Assembly (NCBI RefSeq): GCF_030013595.1
Contig: NZ_CP122768.1
DNA: 64,000 nucleotides
Origin: Escherichia coli
Lineage (GTDB): Bacteria > Pseudomonadota > Gammaproteobacteria > Enterobacterales > Enterobacteriaceae
Direction: 5' to 3' (one strand)
The position numbers are program-made. Positions 53,101 to 64,000 of this stretch are shown here, piece after piece. Every line of letters starts with the position of its first letter. Positions within the stretch are counted from its first letter, which is position 1.

Positions 53101-56100
53101 CGTTATAACCTGGATTGGTAACGGCGCAGATGTTCTGATGGAGCGCGCATTGACCTGGGCGCGTCAGGAACGTGCGACTCTGCGTAAAACAATGGGTAAA
53201 CCGCCCGTTGATGACGACATTCCGGCAGAAGAACAGGTACGTATTCTGCGTAAATTGTTCGATCGCTACTATGGCGAGGTTGCCGAAGAGGGGACGTTTT
53301 TGTTCCCGCACGTTGCCGATACGCTGGGCGCATTGCAGGCTAAAGGCCTGCCGTTGGGCCTGGTCACCAACAAACCGACGCCGTTCGTCGCGCCGCTGCT
53401 CGAAGCCTTAGATATCGCCAAATACTTCAGCGTGGTGATTGGTGGTGATGATGTGCAAAACAAAAAACCGCATCCGGACCCGCTGTTACTGGTGGCTGAG
53501 CGGATGGGAATTGCTCCACAACAGATGCTGTTTGTTGGCGACTCACGCAATGATATTCAGGCAGCAAAAGCGGCAGGTTGCCCATCAGTTGGCTTAACCT
53601 ACGGATATAACTACGGCGAGGCTATCGATCTCAGCCAGCCTGATGTAATTTATCAGTCTATAAATGACCTTCTGCCCGCATTAGGGCTTCCGCATAGCGA
53701 AAATCAGGAATCGAAAAATGACTAAGCCCATCGTTTTTAGTGGCGCACAGCCCTCAGGTGAATTGACCATTGGTAACTACATGGGTGCGCTGCGTCAGTG
53801 GGTAAACATGCAGGATGACTACCATTGCATTTACTGTATCGTTGACCAACACGCGATCACCGTGCGCCAGGATGCACAGAAGCTGCGTAAAGCGACGCTG
53901 GATACGCTGGCCTTGTATCTGGCTTGTGGTATCGATCCTGAGAAAAGCACCATTTTTGTTCAGTCCCACGTGCCGGAACATGCACAGTTAGGCTGGGCAC
54001 TGAACTGCTATACCTACTTCGGCGAACTGAGCCGCATGACGCAGTTTAAAGATAAATCTGCGCGTTATGCCGAGAACATCAACGCTGGTCTGTTTGACTA
54101 TCCGGTGCTGATGGCTGCGGACATCCTGCTGTATCAAACTAATCTGGTGCCGGTGGGTGAAGACCAGAAACAGCACCTGGAACTGAGCCGCGATATCGCC
54201 CAGCGTTTCAACGCGCTGTATGGCGATATCTTTAAGGTGCCAGAGCCGTTTATTCCGAAATCTGGCGCGCGCGTAATGTCGCTGCTGGAGCCGACCAAGA
54301 AGATGTCCAAGTCTGACGATAATCGCAATAACGTTATCGGCCTGCTGGAAGATCCGAAATCGGTAGTGAAGAAAATCAAACGCGCGGTCACTGACTCCGA
54401 CGAGCCGCCGGTAGTTCGCTACGATGTGCAGAATAAAGCGGGCGTTTCCAACCTGCTGGATATCCTTTCTGCGGTAACGGGCCAGAGCATCCCGGAACTG
54501 GAAAAACAGTTCGAAGGCAAGATGTATGGTCATCTGAAAGGCGAAGTGGCTGATGCCGTTTCCGGTATGCTGACTGAATTGCAGGAACGCTATCACCGTT
54601 TCCGCAATGACGAAGCCTTCCTGCAACAGGTGATGAAAGATGGCGCTGAAAAAGCCAGCGCACACGCTTCCCGTACGCTAAAAGCGGTGTACGAAGCGAT
54701 TGGTTTTGTGGCGAAGCCGTAATTTAACATTAATGCCAAAAACCGGGGAAACCCGGTTTTTTTATCCTCATTTGCAATAATCCGAAAAAATGTGAAGCGT
54801 CTCGCCGTTTCCACATCTCGCAGTTGCCACTTATCTTCATTTTTATGAAGATATAAATATTCACTTTATTGAAAATTTACTATGCGTCGAACGTTTATCA
54901 AAAAAGAAGGCGTCGTCATCACGACACTGGCCCGTTATTTGTTGGGTGAAAAGTGCGGTAATCGACTGAAAACCATAGATGAACTGGCAACTGAATGCCG
55001 TTCATCCGTTGGCCTGACGCAGGCCGCGTTGAAAACGCTGGAATCAAGCGGAGCGATACGGATAGAACGCCGTGGGCGTAATGGCAGTTATCTGGTGGAA
55101 ATGGATAACAAAGCATTGCTGAGTCATGTGGATATCAACAATGTGGTGTGCGCGATGCCCTTGCCCTATACCCGTTTGTACGAAGGCCTGGCGAGCGGAT
55201 TGAAAGCCCAATTTGATGGCATTCCTTTTTACTATGCGCACATGCGCGGCGCGGATATTCGCGTGGAGTGTCTGCTTAATGGCGTGTATGACATGGCGGT
55301 GGTTTCCCGACTGGCGGCGGAAAGTTATCTCACGCAAAAAGGGTTATGCCTCGCGCTGGAGCTGGGGCCGCACACCTACGTTGGCGAGCACCAGTTGATT
55401 TGCCGTAAAGGCGAGTCCGCAAACGTGAAGCGCGTGGGGCTGGATAACCGTTCGGCGGATCAGAAAATCATGACCGATGTCTTTTTTGGCGATAGTGATG
55501 TGGAACGTGTCGATCTCTCTTATCACGAGAGTTTACAACGCATTGTTAAAGGCGATGTCGATGCGGTTATCTGGAACGTGGTGGCGGAAAACGAACTGAC
55601 CATGCTGGGATTAGAAGCGACGCCGCTCACAGACGATCCGCGATTTTTACAGGCCACCGAAGCCGTGGTTTTGACGCGAGTCGATGATTACCCGATGCAA
55701 CAATTGCTGCGTGCAGTTGTTGATAAACAGGCCCTGCTTGCCCATCAACAACGAGTGGTCTGTGGGGAACAGGAACCCAGTTATTAAACCAAAGGCATCT
55801 GAAATGGAAACCAGACTCAACCTGCTTTGCGATGCAGGCGTTATTGATAAGGACATCTGCAAAGGCATGATGCAGGTCGTCAACGTACTGGAAACAGAGT
55901 GTCATCTACCGGTGCGCAGCGAGCAAGGAATGATGGCGATGACACATATGGCGAGCGCACTGATGCGCAGTCGCCGTGGTGAAGAAATAGAGCCGCTGGA
56001 CGCCGAATTGCTGGCAGAACTGGCGCAATCCAGCCACTGGCAAGCCGTTGTGCAATTGCATCAGGTGTTGTTGAAGGAATTTACACTGGAAGTTAACCCG

Positions 56101-62100: not shown

Positions 62101-64000
62101 AAACTCGGTGCCTTGCCTTACCCGGTTGGTGCAGAGTCGAAATATGAAATCCCGCCGCTCTTTTATCGACTTTCCGGAACGTTTCGCCAGGCGAATCCGC
62201 AGTTAGAACATTGCGCGATTCGCATTAACCCAAATCGCAGCGGTGAAGAGACGGTGCTGCGGATTTTGCGTGAGAGTATTGCCAGTATTTAATCTTGTGC
62301 ATGATGTTTTCGAAAAGAATGCAGAAATAAATACGCCCTCGGGTAACCCCGAGGGCGTCAGGCAATTAAACCGGTGTTAGCCGATTTCTGTCAGAGACTT
62401 ACTGTGCAGTAGGACCGCAACCGCCAATGATTTTAGAAATAGAAATTGCCGGGTGCAGCAGGTAGTCGTAAGAGCAGTTCTTATCACGGTTTTCAATATG
62501 ACCAGTACATGCAGTTAACGTAGCCAGTACTGCGCCTACCAGTGCAACTTTAATAAATTTGTTCATTTACATTCCCTATGTATTATATATTAATTAATAT
62601 TCATTGATTATATGAATATAAGCAGACTGCTCATTAAGAACGATACAGGAATATTTAATTAGCGTCAGTGAGTGAATGGCTTAATTTTGTAAGTCGCTGT
62701 AACGGTGAATATAACCCATTAGCAGATAATATTTATTAAGGGGTTATGTTTTATTTGCTGAATATATAAAAAGAGTCATTAAGAAGGCCAGAATTCTCTG
62801 GCCCGGGTTACATTAATGGTTGGAGAACCAGTTCAGTTTATCGCGCAGGCCAACAACACGACCAATAATAATTAGCGATGGACTGTTCATTTGCTGCGCC
62901 AGTTCGCCCAGCTGTGTGAGCGTACCGTCAATCACGCGCTGCGTGACTGCTGTTCCGTTTTCGACAATTGCCACCGGCATTTCGCCAGGCATACCGTGTT
63001 CAATCAGCTTTTGCTGAATAGTCGCAGCCTGATTCAGCCCCATATAGAACACCAGCGTTTGTTTTTCTGCCGCCAGGTTTTCCCAGTCCAGCTCGCCACC
63101 AGTTTTTAAGTGTCCGGTAATTAAGCGCACGCTCTGGGCATAATCGCGATGCGTGAGCGGAATACCCGAATAGGCAGAGCAACCAGAAGCTGCGGTAATA
63201 CCCGGAACCACCGAGAACGGAATACCCGCGTTGCACAGTGTTTCCAGCTCTTCTCCGCCACGCCCGAAAATAAACGGATCGCCGCCTTTCAGACGCACCA
63301 CGCGTTTACCTTTTTGCGCTTCCCGCAGCAAGATCTGGTTAATCTCTTCCTGCGGTACGCAGTGGTATCCCGCGCGTTTGCCGACGAAAACGCGATCAGC
63401 ATCGCGGCGTACCAGATTCATAATATCGTCAGAAACCAGACGGTCGTAGACCACCACATCAGCCTGCTGAATTTGTTGCAGACCTTTCAGTGTCAGCAGT
63501 CCGGCATCGCCCGGACCTGCACCAACCAGCACCACTTCACCGCGATGGTCGAGCGGTTCGTTGATTAACTGTTCGGTGGTTTCAGTAATGGCTTTCTGAT
63601 CGTTGTTGGCCAGCGACTGCGCCAGGCGGTCGTTAACGAACAATTTCTCCCAGAAACGGCGACGCTCACCCATCGTGGCGAACTGTTGTTTCACTCGCCC
63701 GCGTAATTGCCCGGCGTATTTCGCTACCTGGCCCAGATGTAACGGCAGCTGTGATTCGAGTTTTTCGCGCAACAGGCGCGCCAGAACCGGAGAGGTGCCG
63801 CCAGAGGATACCGCGACCATGAGCGGTGAGCGGTCAATAATCGACGGCATAATAAAGCTGGCGGCTTTCGGCGCATCGACCACGTTACAGAAGATGCGAC
63901 GAGCTTCAGCGGCTTCACTGACGCGCTGGTTAAGCGCGTCATCATCCGTCGCAGCAATTGCCAGCCAGCAGGTGTCGAGAAGGCTTTCATCAAATGGCCC

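Follow-up and report, generated by a model that had tools for sequence, protein, structure and literature searches.

The eight genes from yhfZ to yhfS of Escherichia coli are best explained as a catabolic regulon, yhfZY / yhfXW-php-yhfUTS, that is intact, inducible and kept by selection, and that would be repressed by YhfZ, probably activated by CRP, linked to the PTS and devoted to a sugar derivative that bears an amino group and is processed as a phosphate ester; we put the probability of this reading at roughly 0.55. The block itself is not a discovery but a long-annotated known unknown, since no pathway function was found for it in the full-text literature, RefSeq or the PDB, in line with the first-pass annotation, which was aware of none. 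The current K-12 RefSeq names of all eight products are "putative" or "uncharacterized", PDB entries 4KBX, 4J8L and 2OZZ are titled "uncharacterized" or "hypothetical", and the literature searched yielded neither a growth phenotype for the yhfZ–yhfS genes nor an experiment tying any of them to a compound. What the comparison of 80 species newly shows is a minimal core, DNA control sites and a link to sugar-phosphate uptake.

The yhf genes are among the better-conserved function-less genes of the most studied bacterium, and four of their products have crystal structures yet no assigned function. Knowing the substrate would close a gap in the metabolic map of E. coli, provide a reaction for the bacterial PHP clade, which has a lately deorphanised mammalian relative in PTER, and define a transporter family, that of YhfT, without a structural relative. 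The predicted operator, the PTS hint and the hint of a chitin niche in Vibrionaceae narrow an "unknown operon" to testable questions.

Organization and Conservation of the Locus

In the window, that is, the whole 64,000-nt stretch of DNA analysed, the open reading frames of yhfZ, yhfY, yhfX, yhfW, php, yhfU, yhfT and yhfS occupy positions 54882–62292 on the + strand, exactly where the first-pass annotation had placed a co-oriented block with overlapping or near-abutting boundaries, and every family that it named was recovered by Pfam and NCBIfam. The intergenic spacings from yhfZ to yhfS are 16, 83, 0, −4 (overlap), 10, 11 and 11 nt, and the block is flanked by trpS on one side and yhfL/cysG on the other. 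For yhfY (55804) and yhfU (59526), the start codons used are the RefSeq calls and match the N-termini of distant homologues; the longest mechanical open reading frames, starting at 55684 and 59487, respectively, are too long. The intrinsic terminator hairpin of trpS (54738..54761, +; AAAAACCGGG-GAAA-CCCGGTTTTT, then a T run), a perfect 10-nt inverted repeat conserved in K-12, divides trpS from the yhf locus. A GC-rich hairpin (62333..62358), an 11-nt perfect inverted repeat between the convergent yhfS and yhfL, lies at the end of the unit, and its T-rich tail faces the yhfL side.

Gene order and lengths are identical in K-12 (b3383–b3376), with 92.4–97.3% nucleotide identity per gene, and the RefSeq annotation of E. 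coli NZ_CM149870 has the same eight genes in a block that is 100% identical. The block was matched in 5425 of 5426 complete E. coli genomes, and in 5057 of them at least 80% of the query lay in a single piece. All eight genes are under purifying selection, with dN/dS of 0.00–0.18 against K-12 and 0.03–0.14 against E. albertii, and alignments with distant homologues show that the catalytic residues of the enzymes are invariant across phyla. Such figures bear on the idea that the genes are a silent, cryptic leftover in E. coli, heading for loss and without current function: a promoter scan of the + strand upstream of yhfZ and yhfX turned up no sigma-70 consensus, the literature searched holds no phenotype, yhfW, yhfT and yhfS carry frameshifts in Citrobacter koseri and Trabulsiella odontotermitis, Yersinia has lost yhfW, and about 7% of E. 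coli genomes are without a contiguous copy. However, strong selection on all eight genes, catalytic residues and operators conserved across phyla, and the large majority of genomes with at least 80% of the region in one piece make a remnant very unlikely.

The genome-context comparison suggested at the outset found clusters of the block's families in 80 species, spread over four phylum-level groups, so the gene order is truly conserved and not due to chance. Both yhfU and yhfT are present in 80/80 loci and yhfX in 78/80, the two exceptions being truncated by contig ends; php occurs in 77, the PRD protein in 72, yhfW in 70 and yhfS in only 38, being absent from 42. The universal set is therefore yhfU, yhfT and yhfX alone, while php, yhfW, yhfZ and yhfY are usual members and the full eight-gene form is specific to Enterobacteriaceae. 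All eight Yersinia loci, one of them truncated by a contig end, are missing yhfW, and three Enterovibrio have the cluster without php, yhfZ and yhfY. A CBM5/12 protein is encoded in five loci only and is the basis of the chitin hint in Vibrionaceae.

Enzymes of the Locus

YhfX (56250–57413, +), the sole enzyme in every complete locus, is a fold-type III PLP enzyme with Ala_racemase_N (80 bits; cut-off 24) and YhfX-like_C domains (PDB 4KBX) and an invariant PLP lysine, Lys61. Its only named sequence relative is the ornithine racemase Orr (NF040742), whose model it matches with 25 bits, far short of the cut-off of 480; as judged from sequence, this likeness speaks for ordinary amino acids no less than for sugar amino acids. 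YhfS (61207–62292, +), an accessory member, is a small fold-type I PLP enzyme (Aminotran_1_2 and YhfS-like_C; PDB 4J8L) with weak likeness to Cys/Met gamma-lyase-type enzymes.

YhfW (57414–58640, +) is a phosphopentomutase-like metalloenzyme (Pfam Metalloenzyme, 188 bits) whose best PDB matches are phosphopentomutases, with E of about 1e-31. D10, T84, D298, H302, D338, H339 and H350 are invariant and form a complete catalytic set of Thr nucleophile and metal ligands, which we take to correspond to the catalytic residues of the B. cereus PPM structure. YhfW falls below the DeoB cut-offs (TIGR01696, 142 vs. 341 bits; PRK05362, 180 vs. 256), and its RefSeq name "phosphopentomutase" derives from PRK12383 (731 bits, residues 1–408 to profile 1–408); a phosphopentomutase activity is putative.

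Php (58637–59515, +), the phosphotriesterase-homology protein, is a binuclear-metal hydrolase of the amidohydrolase superfamily (Pfam PTE, 484 bits; cut-off 22.4; PDB 1BF6 and 4LEF), and its metal ligands H12, H14, E125, H158, H186 and D243 are invariant in eight distant homologues. The phospho-furanose lactonase family (NF045706) is among its nearest named relatives, but Php scores 96.9 bits there against a cut-off of 630 and 100.6 against 500 for the organophosphate hydrolase OPH (NF041153). It has been reported that PHPs form a separate clade within the family (PMC4323659). Relatives of Php hydrolyse non-sugar lactones and N-acetyltaurine too, and the bond cut by Php is not readable from family membership because eukaryotic PTER, of the same family, is an N-acetyltaurine amidase.

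Membership of the PTE family would also suit the breakdown of an aminophosphonate or organophosphate ester, with Php cleaving the phosph(on)ate ester, YhfW serving as an alkaline-phosphatase-superfamily hydrolase, and YhfS and YhfX transaminating or racemising an aminophosphonate such as phosphonoalanine. YhfW weakly matches Phosphodiest and a phosphonoformyl transferase, YhfS weakly matches 2-aminoethylphosphonate transaminase, and PAP2 and class B acid phosphatases follow yhfT in one locus (L046). However, these weak matches are all far under cut-off, as is Php for OPH; no C–P lyase, phosphonatase or PEP-mutase-family gene was found among the neighbours examined; and the PTS, PRD and RpiB features would be left unexplained, so that this chemistry appears highly improbable.

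The YhfU–YhfT Pair

YhfU (59526–59879, +; DUF2620), the obligate partner of YhfT, models as an RpiB/LacAB fold with a catalytic cysteine loop. The loop, G-A-C-x-[TS]-G-x-G, has invariant G50, A51, C52, G55 and G57 with T or S at 54 and lies in register with the RpiB loop ICGTGLG. YhfU was rejected as a full RpiB/LacAB protein (Pfam LacAB_rpiB, 13.6 vs. 24.7 bits), as residues 32–61 alone align: it has 117 residues against about 140–150 in the full-length domain, an invariant Gly8 at the post-beta1 position, and neither the N-terminal Asp-His nor the C-terminal third of true RpiB. From these sequence features, YhfU may not be an isomerase at all but a subunit that is non-catalytic or acts as a phospho-carrier. 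YhfT (59891–61195, +; Pfam YhfT) is a polytopic membrane protein and presumed permease, which gave no match to solved transporter folds, and stand-alone yhfU–yhfT pairs exist.

The mutase likeness of YhfW, with its full catalytic set, and the RpiB likeness of YhfU are both in keeping with salvage of a pentose or modified nucleoside, in which a ribosyl conjugate would enter, YhfW would interconvert pentose 1-phosphate and 5-phosphate, YhfU would isomerise pentose 5-phosphate, Php would hydrolyse a pentonolactone 5-phosphate, and the PLP enzymes would handle an amino-acid aglycone. The nearest relative of YhfU in fold is ribose-5-phosphate isomerase B, and the known phospho-sugar lactonases of Php's family are said, by Xiang et al. 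in 2012, to act on pentonolactone 5-phosphates. Nevertheless, none of the 80 loci contains a phosphorylase, nucleosidase or kinase; YhfW is dispensable in Yersinia and below the deoB cut-off; and the pairing of YhfU with a membrane protein, stand-alone pairs included, ill suits a soluble isomerase. Nucleoside salvage is accordingly judged distinctly unlikely.

Predicted Regulation and a Probable PTS Link

YhfZ (54882–55787, +) combines an HTH_41 DNA-binding domain with a YhfZ_C ligand-binding domain (282 and 67 bits in Pfam; 372 bits for NCBIfam YhfZ_full, whose cut-off is 260); the structure of its C-domain is PDB 2OZZ, and yhfZ has a dN/dS of 0.04. Like GntR-type repressors, YhfZ pairs an HTH with an effector domain, and its own promoter carries a conserved palindrome; YhfZ is predicted to be a repressor. 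YhfY (55804–56166, +) is a small stand-alone PRD-like protein with an invariant His48; its match to Pfam PRD (E = 0.007, 17.1 bits) lies below the cut-off of 23, and homologues in other loci carry PF00874 in precomputed matches. It also weakly matches TIGR03582 (EF_0829), of which it is not a member because it scores 27.6 bits against a cut-off of 69.35.

The palindrome TTCA-N6-TGAA is the predicted operator of YhfZ: exact sites number 81 in the 9.1 kb immediately preceding yhfZ and 91 in the remaining 1.43 Mb, so that the palindrome is enriched 140-fold there, across phyla. Of 74 loci, 56 have at least one exact site, near-miss variants explain most of the remainder, and Clostridia have the covarying form TACA-N6-TGTA. 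Three copies are present in E. coli, a pair upstream of yhfZ and a single site upstream of yhfX, all backed by footprint alignments. Predicted operator O1 (54832..54853; TATCTTCAT-N4-ATGAAGATA) is a perfect inverted repeat with its core at 54836–54849 and its right arm overlapping a −10-like GAAGAT; K-12 keeps the arms with a different spacer, and most loci of Enterobacteriaceae have an O1-type site 29–32 nt ahead of the yhfZ start codon. Predicted operator O2 (54854..54879; TAAATATTCACTTTATTGAAAATTTA), with its core at 54860–54873, is 24 bp from O1 and ends 8 nt before the yhfZ ATG, and Vibrionaceae and low-GC loci have one equivalent site 5–18 nt before yhfZ. Predicted operator O3 (56196..56221; TAAATATTCA-N6-TGAATATTTA), a perfect 10-nt inverted repeat, ends 34 nt before the yhfX ATG and is, with the ribosome-binding site, the only conserved block in the yhfY–yhfX spacer of 10 genera. 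There are thus probably two control points, before yhfZ and before yhfX, and of the earlier proposal of one operon, the co-orientation and tight packing stand but the single unit probably does not. The operon table reproduced in PMC4448311 likewise gives yhfX–yhfS as a unit of its own without yhfZ/yhfY.

A candidate CRP site (54789..54808, +; TGTGA-N6-TCGCC) is centred at 54798.5, or about −61.5 relative to the putative start site; its TGTGA (54791–54795) is invariant in 10 enterobacterial genera, while the surrounding sequence is variable. The TTG of a −35-like TTGCCA (54824–54829) is conserved, and the spacing from the candidate site fits class I geometry; the invariant half-site suggests CRP activation.

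In Vibrionaceae and low-GC bacteria, the operator also precedes lactose/cellobiose-family PTS operons (IIB-IIC-IIA, with or without DUF7916) or IIC genes (L059, L066, L079, L080, L005 and L006), and these genes together with the PRD-like YhfY connect the yhf system with sugar uptake by the PTS. No PTS component (EIIA, EIIB or EIIC) is recognisable by Pfam or NCBIfam in the E. coli block. It is conceivable, though doubtful, that YhfT–YhfU is itself a previously unrecognised PTS-coupled permease, group-translocating or phospho-regulated, in which the Cys52 loop would be a phospho-carrier or would modify the substrate on entry, and YhfY would sense its phosphorylation and tune YhfZ.

Proposed Pathway and Substrate

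In the proposed regulon, conservation suggests that YhfZ binds the three palindromes, O1 and O2 spanning the −10-like element, start site and yhfZ leader and O3 lying before yhfX; CRP would activate through the invariant TGTGA half-site, and YhfY, with its invariant His, would couple the switch to the PTS phosphorylation state. Protein families and gene co-occurrence suggest uptake by YhfT with its RpiB-fold partner YhfU and a key step by YhfX at an alpha-amino-acid-type centre, which may be racemisation/epimerisation or elimination/deamination. Php and YhfW would supply separable feeder steps, Php opening a lactone or amide and YhfW repositioning a phosphate, and YhfS would add an optional second PLP step.

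On the same evidence, the likeliest substrates are sugar derivatives with an amino group that are processed as phosphate esters, perhaps a 2-amino-2-deoxy-aldonate (a sugar amino acid) or the lactone or N-acyl form of one, or perhaps a beta-glycoside with a 2-amino-2-deoxy-aldonate-type unit. The sugar-phosphate character is suggested by the phosphopentomutase-like YhfW with its Thr nucleophile, the phospho-furanose lactonase family among the nearest named relatives of Php and a Cof-type sugar phosphatase after yhfW in L009, and the amino character by one or two PLP enzymes and the amidase-like accessory genes of L008 and L070. These families and this gene context are in accord with the first-pass annotation, which proposed catabolism of an amino- or phospho-modified sugar or amino acid derivative.

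An amino-acid derivative without any sugar is also worth weighing. Php would open a lactone or lactam (homoserine lactone, homocysteine thiolactone, ornithine or lysine lactam), YhfX would racemise a D/L amino acid, YhfW would transfer a phosphoryl group to give, e.g., O-phosphohomoserine, and YhfS would catalyse gamma-elimination or transamination. As PDB neighbours also indicate, PTE-family lactonases act on homoserine lactones, the sole named relative of YhfX is ornithine racemase, YhfS is nearest to methionine gamma-lyase and O-succinylhomoserine sulfhydrylase types, and YhfW weakly matches a "proposed homoserine kinase" (TIGR02535); Lys/Arg/Orn-type binding proteins lie downstream in L008, and an Orn/Lys/Arg decarboxylase adjoins a YhfT homologue in L007. 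However, the four-enzyme chain is not conserved, since yhfS is so often missing and Yersinia has no yhfW; YhfW is without an ATP-binding module, its best matches being sugar-phosphate mutases; and this model gives no account of the operator-linked cellobiose-family PTS, the RpiB-fold YhfU, the PRD protein or the Cof sugar phosphatase. We consider a sugar-free substrate unlikely.

Comparison with Known Systems

In Salmonella, dgaABCDEF takes up D-glucosaminate by PTS-linked transport as a phosphorylated sugar amino acid, which a PLP enzyme converts into a keto-deoxy sugar phosphate. This chemical logic resembles that proposed for yhf, but the mannose-family PTS, SelA-like fold-I lyase, KDPG aldolase and sigma-54 activator of dga are all absent from the yhf block. 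In the E. coli ula system for L-ascorbate, a lactone is imported and phosphorylated and then opened by a metal-dependent lactonase, under control of a repressor and CRP. The proposed yhf scheme shares lactone opening by a metal hydrolase under repressor and CRP; however, UlaG has a metallo-beta-lactamase fold, UlaABC is a recognised PTS family, and ula has no PLP enzymes. The PTE-family phospho-sugar lactonases of the Lmo2620/Bh0225 type (NF045706) have the Pfam family and binuclear metal site in common with Php.

In Pseudoalteromonas, the ong cluster degrades the sugar amino acid GlcNAc1A, from oxidised chitin, by an amidohydrolase-superfamily hydrolase, OngB, and a fold-III PLP deaminase, OngC, so that it offers a precedent for the proposed yhf system and resembles it in chemical logic, combining a dedicated transporter with these two enzyme types under a repressor (PMC9537276). 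However, OngB is of the D-aminoacylase type, not the PTE type, OngC is of the D-serine-deaminase/D-threonine-aldolase type, not the YhfX type, and the ong pathway has no phosphorylated intermediates before KDG and no PTS, mutase or RpiB-fold protein (PMC9537276). The EF_0829/AHA_3910 cluster (TIGR03582 and neighbours), itself uncharacterised, places a stand-alone small PRD protein, comparable to the PRD-like YhfY, beside uncharacterised membrane proteins and hydrolases. Finally, frlABCDR degrades a sugar-amino-acid conjugate, fructoselysine, under a GntR-type repressor and directly adjoins yhfS in K-12, but shares no families with the yhf block; frl is absent from the present strain, where yhf is intact, and the two are therefore independent modules.

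Gene organization and annotation of the yhf locus

The genes yhfZ (54882-55787), yhfY (55804-56166), yhfX (56250-57413), yhfW (57414-58640), php (58637-59515), yhfU (59526-59879), yhfT (59891-61195) and yhfS (61207-62292) all lie on the + strand, separated in this order by 16, 83, 0, -4, 10, 11 and 11 nt, and the open reading frames coincide exactly with the eight co-oriented genes listed at 54882-62292 in the first-pass annotation, whose gene families are all confirmed by Pfam and NCBIfam. At the upstream edge, a clean terminator hairpin (54738-54761) lies beyond the end of trpS at 54722; at the downstream edge, a GC-rich hairpin (62333-62358) stands between yhfS and the convergent yhfL. 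The locus is 100% identical to one E. coli chromosome with the same gene annotation, and matches to it are present in 5425 of 5426 complete E. coli genomes.

That these genes have no assigned function, as had been supposed, agrees with the current K-12 RefSeq record, where all eight products are named 'putative' or 'uncharacterized'; with the PDB labels of 4KBX (YhfX), 4J8L (YhfS) and 2OZZ (YhfZ C-domain), which read uncharacterized or hypothetical; and with the Php structures 1BF6 and 4LEF, still labelled 'phosphotriesterase homology protein'. A search of full-text literature, whose coverage leaves out most subscription journals, returned incidental mentions only and no function for any of the eight genes, so the case for the absence of a published function is strong but not absolute. 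Several leads were discarded: 'B3379' is the name of a vitamin C production strain, yhfW in an iJO1366 gap-filling paper is a BLAST guess with E=0.47, and in a lacritin screen yhfZ came up as a knockout hit with no mechanism attached. An RNA element at the locus is likewise unsupported, the candidate windows of a riboswitch-entropy paper being 5-12 kb away; an Rfam scan of 54000-64000 gave no match at E up to 1. Since the genes have been annotated for decades, the earlier observation correctly restates something already recognised as a known unknown; the present analysis adds the operator, a minimal core, a link to the PTS and the assignment of an RpiB fold, each of which can be tested.

Distribution, minimal core and selection

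The YhfT family is rare, forming 303 clusters at 50% identity out of 1.84 billion representatives. Taking one genome for each species, a scan yielded eighty named loci, which were annotated with HMMs derived from the alignments of the families; the narrower alignment A4 was used for the scan, the 16 diverse YhfT sequences of A3 being too divergent for this purpose. Both yhfU and yhfT are present in 80/80 loci, yhfX in 78/80 (both missing cases being truncated by contig ends), php in 77/80, yhfZ and yhfY each in 72/80, yhfW in 70/80 and yhfS in 38/80. The gene yhfU always stands immediately 5' of yhfT, frequently overlapping it, and one stand-alone U-T pair also occurs. This pattern points to YhfU and YhfT as one unit and to YhfX as the indispensable enzyme, with YhfS as a recurrent accessory; Php and YhfW appear separable, since either one may be missing while the other is retained. 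Judged by name, many of the hosts belong to gut-associated, invertebrate-associated or marine genera (Buttiauxella, Trabulsiella, Shimwellia, Ewingella, Hafnia, Sebaldella, Vibrionaceae).

Eight Yersinia loci (L045, L047, L049-L052, L055, L056) show a clean loss of yhfW, with a yhfX-php distance of about 60-170 nt. In Citrobacter koseri and Trabulsiella odontotermitis (L058, L061), the yhfW, yhfT and yhfS reading frames are split, which is suggestive of frameshifts.

A cryptic remnant is one rival reading of the locus. The dN/dS values are 0.00 to 0.18 against K-12 and 0.03 to 0.14 against E. albertii. Among eight or nine homologues from genomes of 28% to 60% GC, all six metal ligands of Php (H12, H14, E125, H158, H186, D243), the mutase-type set of YhfW (D10, T84, D298, H302, D338, H339, H350), Lys61 of YhfX and His48 of YhfY are invariant; the invariant residues and low dN/dS therefore make a decaying remnant unlikely.

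Predicted YhfZ operators and promoter

The motif TTCA-N6-TGAA is common to two perfect palindromes of the window, and a third match to it lies between these and the yhfZ ATG. The predicted operators O1 (54832-54853) and O2 (54854-54879) precede yhfZ, and O3 (56196-56221) precedes yhfX. The motif occurs four times in the window against 1.28 expected, and three of the four lie within the locus. Across all loci, the stretches of 120 nt 5' of yhfZ, which add up to 9.1 kb, contain 81 exact sites and the other 1.43 Mb contains 91, a 140-fold enrichment just upstream of yhfZ; at least one exact site is found in 56/74 loci, with one-mismatch versions in most others. K-12 retains the O1 arms and has a different spacer. 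The Clostridial loci (L083-L091) have no TTCA-N6-TGAA and carry instead TACA-N6-TGTA in the same position, within the 120 nt upstream of yhfZ, e.g., AATATACAAAATAATGTATATT; their YhfZ proteins are the most divergent, and the operator appears to have changed in step with them. The assignment of the palindromic operator to YhfZ is very probable.

Footprint alignments of ten enterobacterial genera show that O1, O2, an invariant TGTGA (54791-54795) and the TTG of a -35-like TTGCCA (54824-54829) are conserved 5' of yhfZ, while O3 and the ribosome-binding site are the only conserved blocks in the yhfY-yhfX spacer. The motif spacing suggests a promoter with TTGCCA as the -35 element and GAAGAT, 17 bp downstream and within the right arm of O1, as the -10 element; transcription may then start near 54860, placing a CRP-like site centred at about -61.5 and the start site and leader under O2. 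A simple consensus scan detected no promoter on the + strand ahead of either yhfZ or yhfX, a result compatible with dependence on an activator. In an operon table that PMC4448311 reproduces, php, yhfS, yhfT, yhfU, yhfW and yhfX form a single operon without yhfZ and yhfY, in agreement with a second control point at O3.

In some loci, TTCA-N6-TGAA also matches within the coding sequences of yhfW, yhfT and yhfY; these matches do not occur in E. coli, may come from conserved codons and were set aside as operator candidates. The match in the 3' part of yhfY (consensus CGCTTCATSCCAATGAAGAGGG) recurs in several Enterobacteriaceae (L018 599, L020 1393, L027 6182, L028 1342, L032 1733, L033 1703, L035 6187) and is inexact in E. 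coli; it could reflect coding constraint or a further weak site.

Probable link to PTS and predicted structure of YhfU and YhfT

The operator stands directly before a lactose/cellobiose-family PTS IIC gene or PTS operon in the low-GC loci L005 and L006 and in the Vibrionaceae loci L059, L066, L079 and L080. The operator-linked operon of Vibrionaceae consists of IIB-IIC-IIA and DUF7916, followed by a porin gene in L079 and L080. DUF7916 (296 aa; L079 5125-6015) is the fourth gene of the PTS operon, also in L059, L071, L072 and L080; PDB and NCBIfam gave no match for it, and its secondary Pfam matches are at noise level only. A second yhfZ paralogue lies beside the PTS block in two Photobacterium loci. 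The operator-linked PTS, the paralogous yhfZ beside it and the PRD protein YhfY together place the system among PTS-sensed sugar regulons, and a functional PTS link is favoured, with some reserve; in the E. coli block itself, Pfam and NCBIfam reveal no recognisable EII component.

The predicted structures of YhfU (DUF2620; pLDDT 96) and YhfT (pLDDT 91) are confident and good, respectively. The invariant G-A-C-x-[TS]-G-x-G loop of YhfU is in register with the active-site loop of RpiB. RpiB has an N-terminal Asp-His; YhfU is about 30 residues shorter and has Gly at that position. YhfU has the RpiB fold and the cysteine loop, and falls outside full membership of the family.

Proposed mechanism and substrate

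From intact, selected genes in conserved synteny, a conserved promoter palindrome, and family and fold assignments, we infer a regulon in which YhfZ would repress through O1-O3, CRP would activate, and YhfY would report PTS status. A compound imported by YhfT/YhfU would be acted on by YhfX at an alpha-amino-acid-type centre; as feeder steps, Php may open a lactone or amide and YhfW may reposition a phosphate, and YhfS, where present, might add a second PLP step. We give this general model a probability of about 0.55. The yhf locus would work like known repressor/CRP/PTS-controlled catabolic operons, whereas its enzyme combination and transporter pair have no characterised counterpart.

Fold-III PLP enzymes act on alpha-amino acids. 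A sugar amino acid (2-amino-2-deoxy-aldonate), either as such or as its lactone, an N-acyl derivative or a glycoside, is tentatively proposed as the substrate class, because it reconciles such a PLP enzyme with the sugar-phosphate look of the remainder. An amino-acid lactone or lactam pathway is a rival, and pentose or nucleoside salvage and phosphonate catabolism are further rivals. Php, YhfW, YhfX and YhfU each resemble named enzyme families and score under the curated cut-offs set for these, and the locus is outside every characterised pathway. For the sugar amino acid, a direct precedent for pairing a hydrolase with a PLP enzyme is the pathway in which an amidohydrolase-superfamily hydrolase and a fold-III PLP deaminase act on GlcNAc1A, a sugar amino acid from LPMO-oxidised chitin (PMC9537276).

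Accessory genes, which vary among the loci, give hints of the chemistry: a Cof-type HAD sugar phosphatase follows yhfW in L009, amidase-signature-like proteins lie within the cluster in L008 and Sebaldella, and in one Enterobacter yhfT is followed by genes for PAP2 and class B acid phosphatases. In addition, a 771-aa secreted-type protein, comprising an unassigned N-terminal part of 330 aa, an RTX-like beta-roll and, at the C-terminus, a CBM5/12 chitin-binding module, is encoded immediately 3' of yhfW in four Vibrionaceae and divergently in the phosphatase-bearing Enterobacter (L071 13822-16137; also L066, L072, L092, L046). A second precedent for the sugar amino acid is found in Salmonella, where the handling of D-glucosaminate 6-phosphate is PTS-linked.

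Strain differences around the locus

In K-12, the fructoselysine operon frlABCDR is located between yhfL and yhfS (L012 5911-10784), while the window strain lacks frl and, at the yhfS-yhfL junction (62293-62400), yhfS runs directly into the yhfL hairpin. A median of two match places per genome suggests that most E. coli carry the frl insertion. As a functional partner, frl was rejected: yhf is intact in the frl-less strain, and the pairing occurs in no other genus. Against K-12, yhfS (61207-62292) has 92.4% nucleotide identity and a dS of 0.29, compared with 95.8-97.3% and 0.10-0.19 for the other seven genes; this divergence may mark a recombination edge at the frl presence/absence boundary.

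Upstream, the stop and the terminator of trpS are about 130 bp further apart in K-12, owing to additional REP/BIME-like palindromic sequence (L012 18346-18634), a stretch that the window strain lacks just after the trpS stop (54723). Downstream, the AT-rich region 5' of yhfL (- strand) contains the palindrome ATATTCAT-N7-ATGAATAT at 62597-62619, which has the yhf operator half-sites TTCA/TGAA at a spacing of 9 nt rather than 6. Some E. coli, such as WP4-S17-ESBL-08 (L011 9627-10324), carry IS1A between yhfL and cysG, and because of it the match is about 780 bp longer in the E. coli hits H5-H8.
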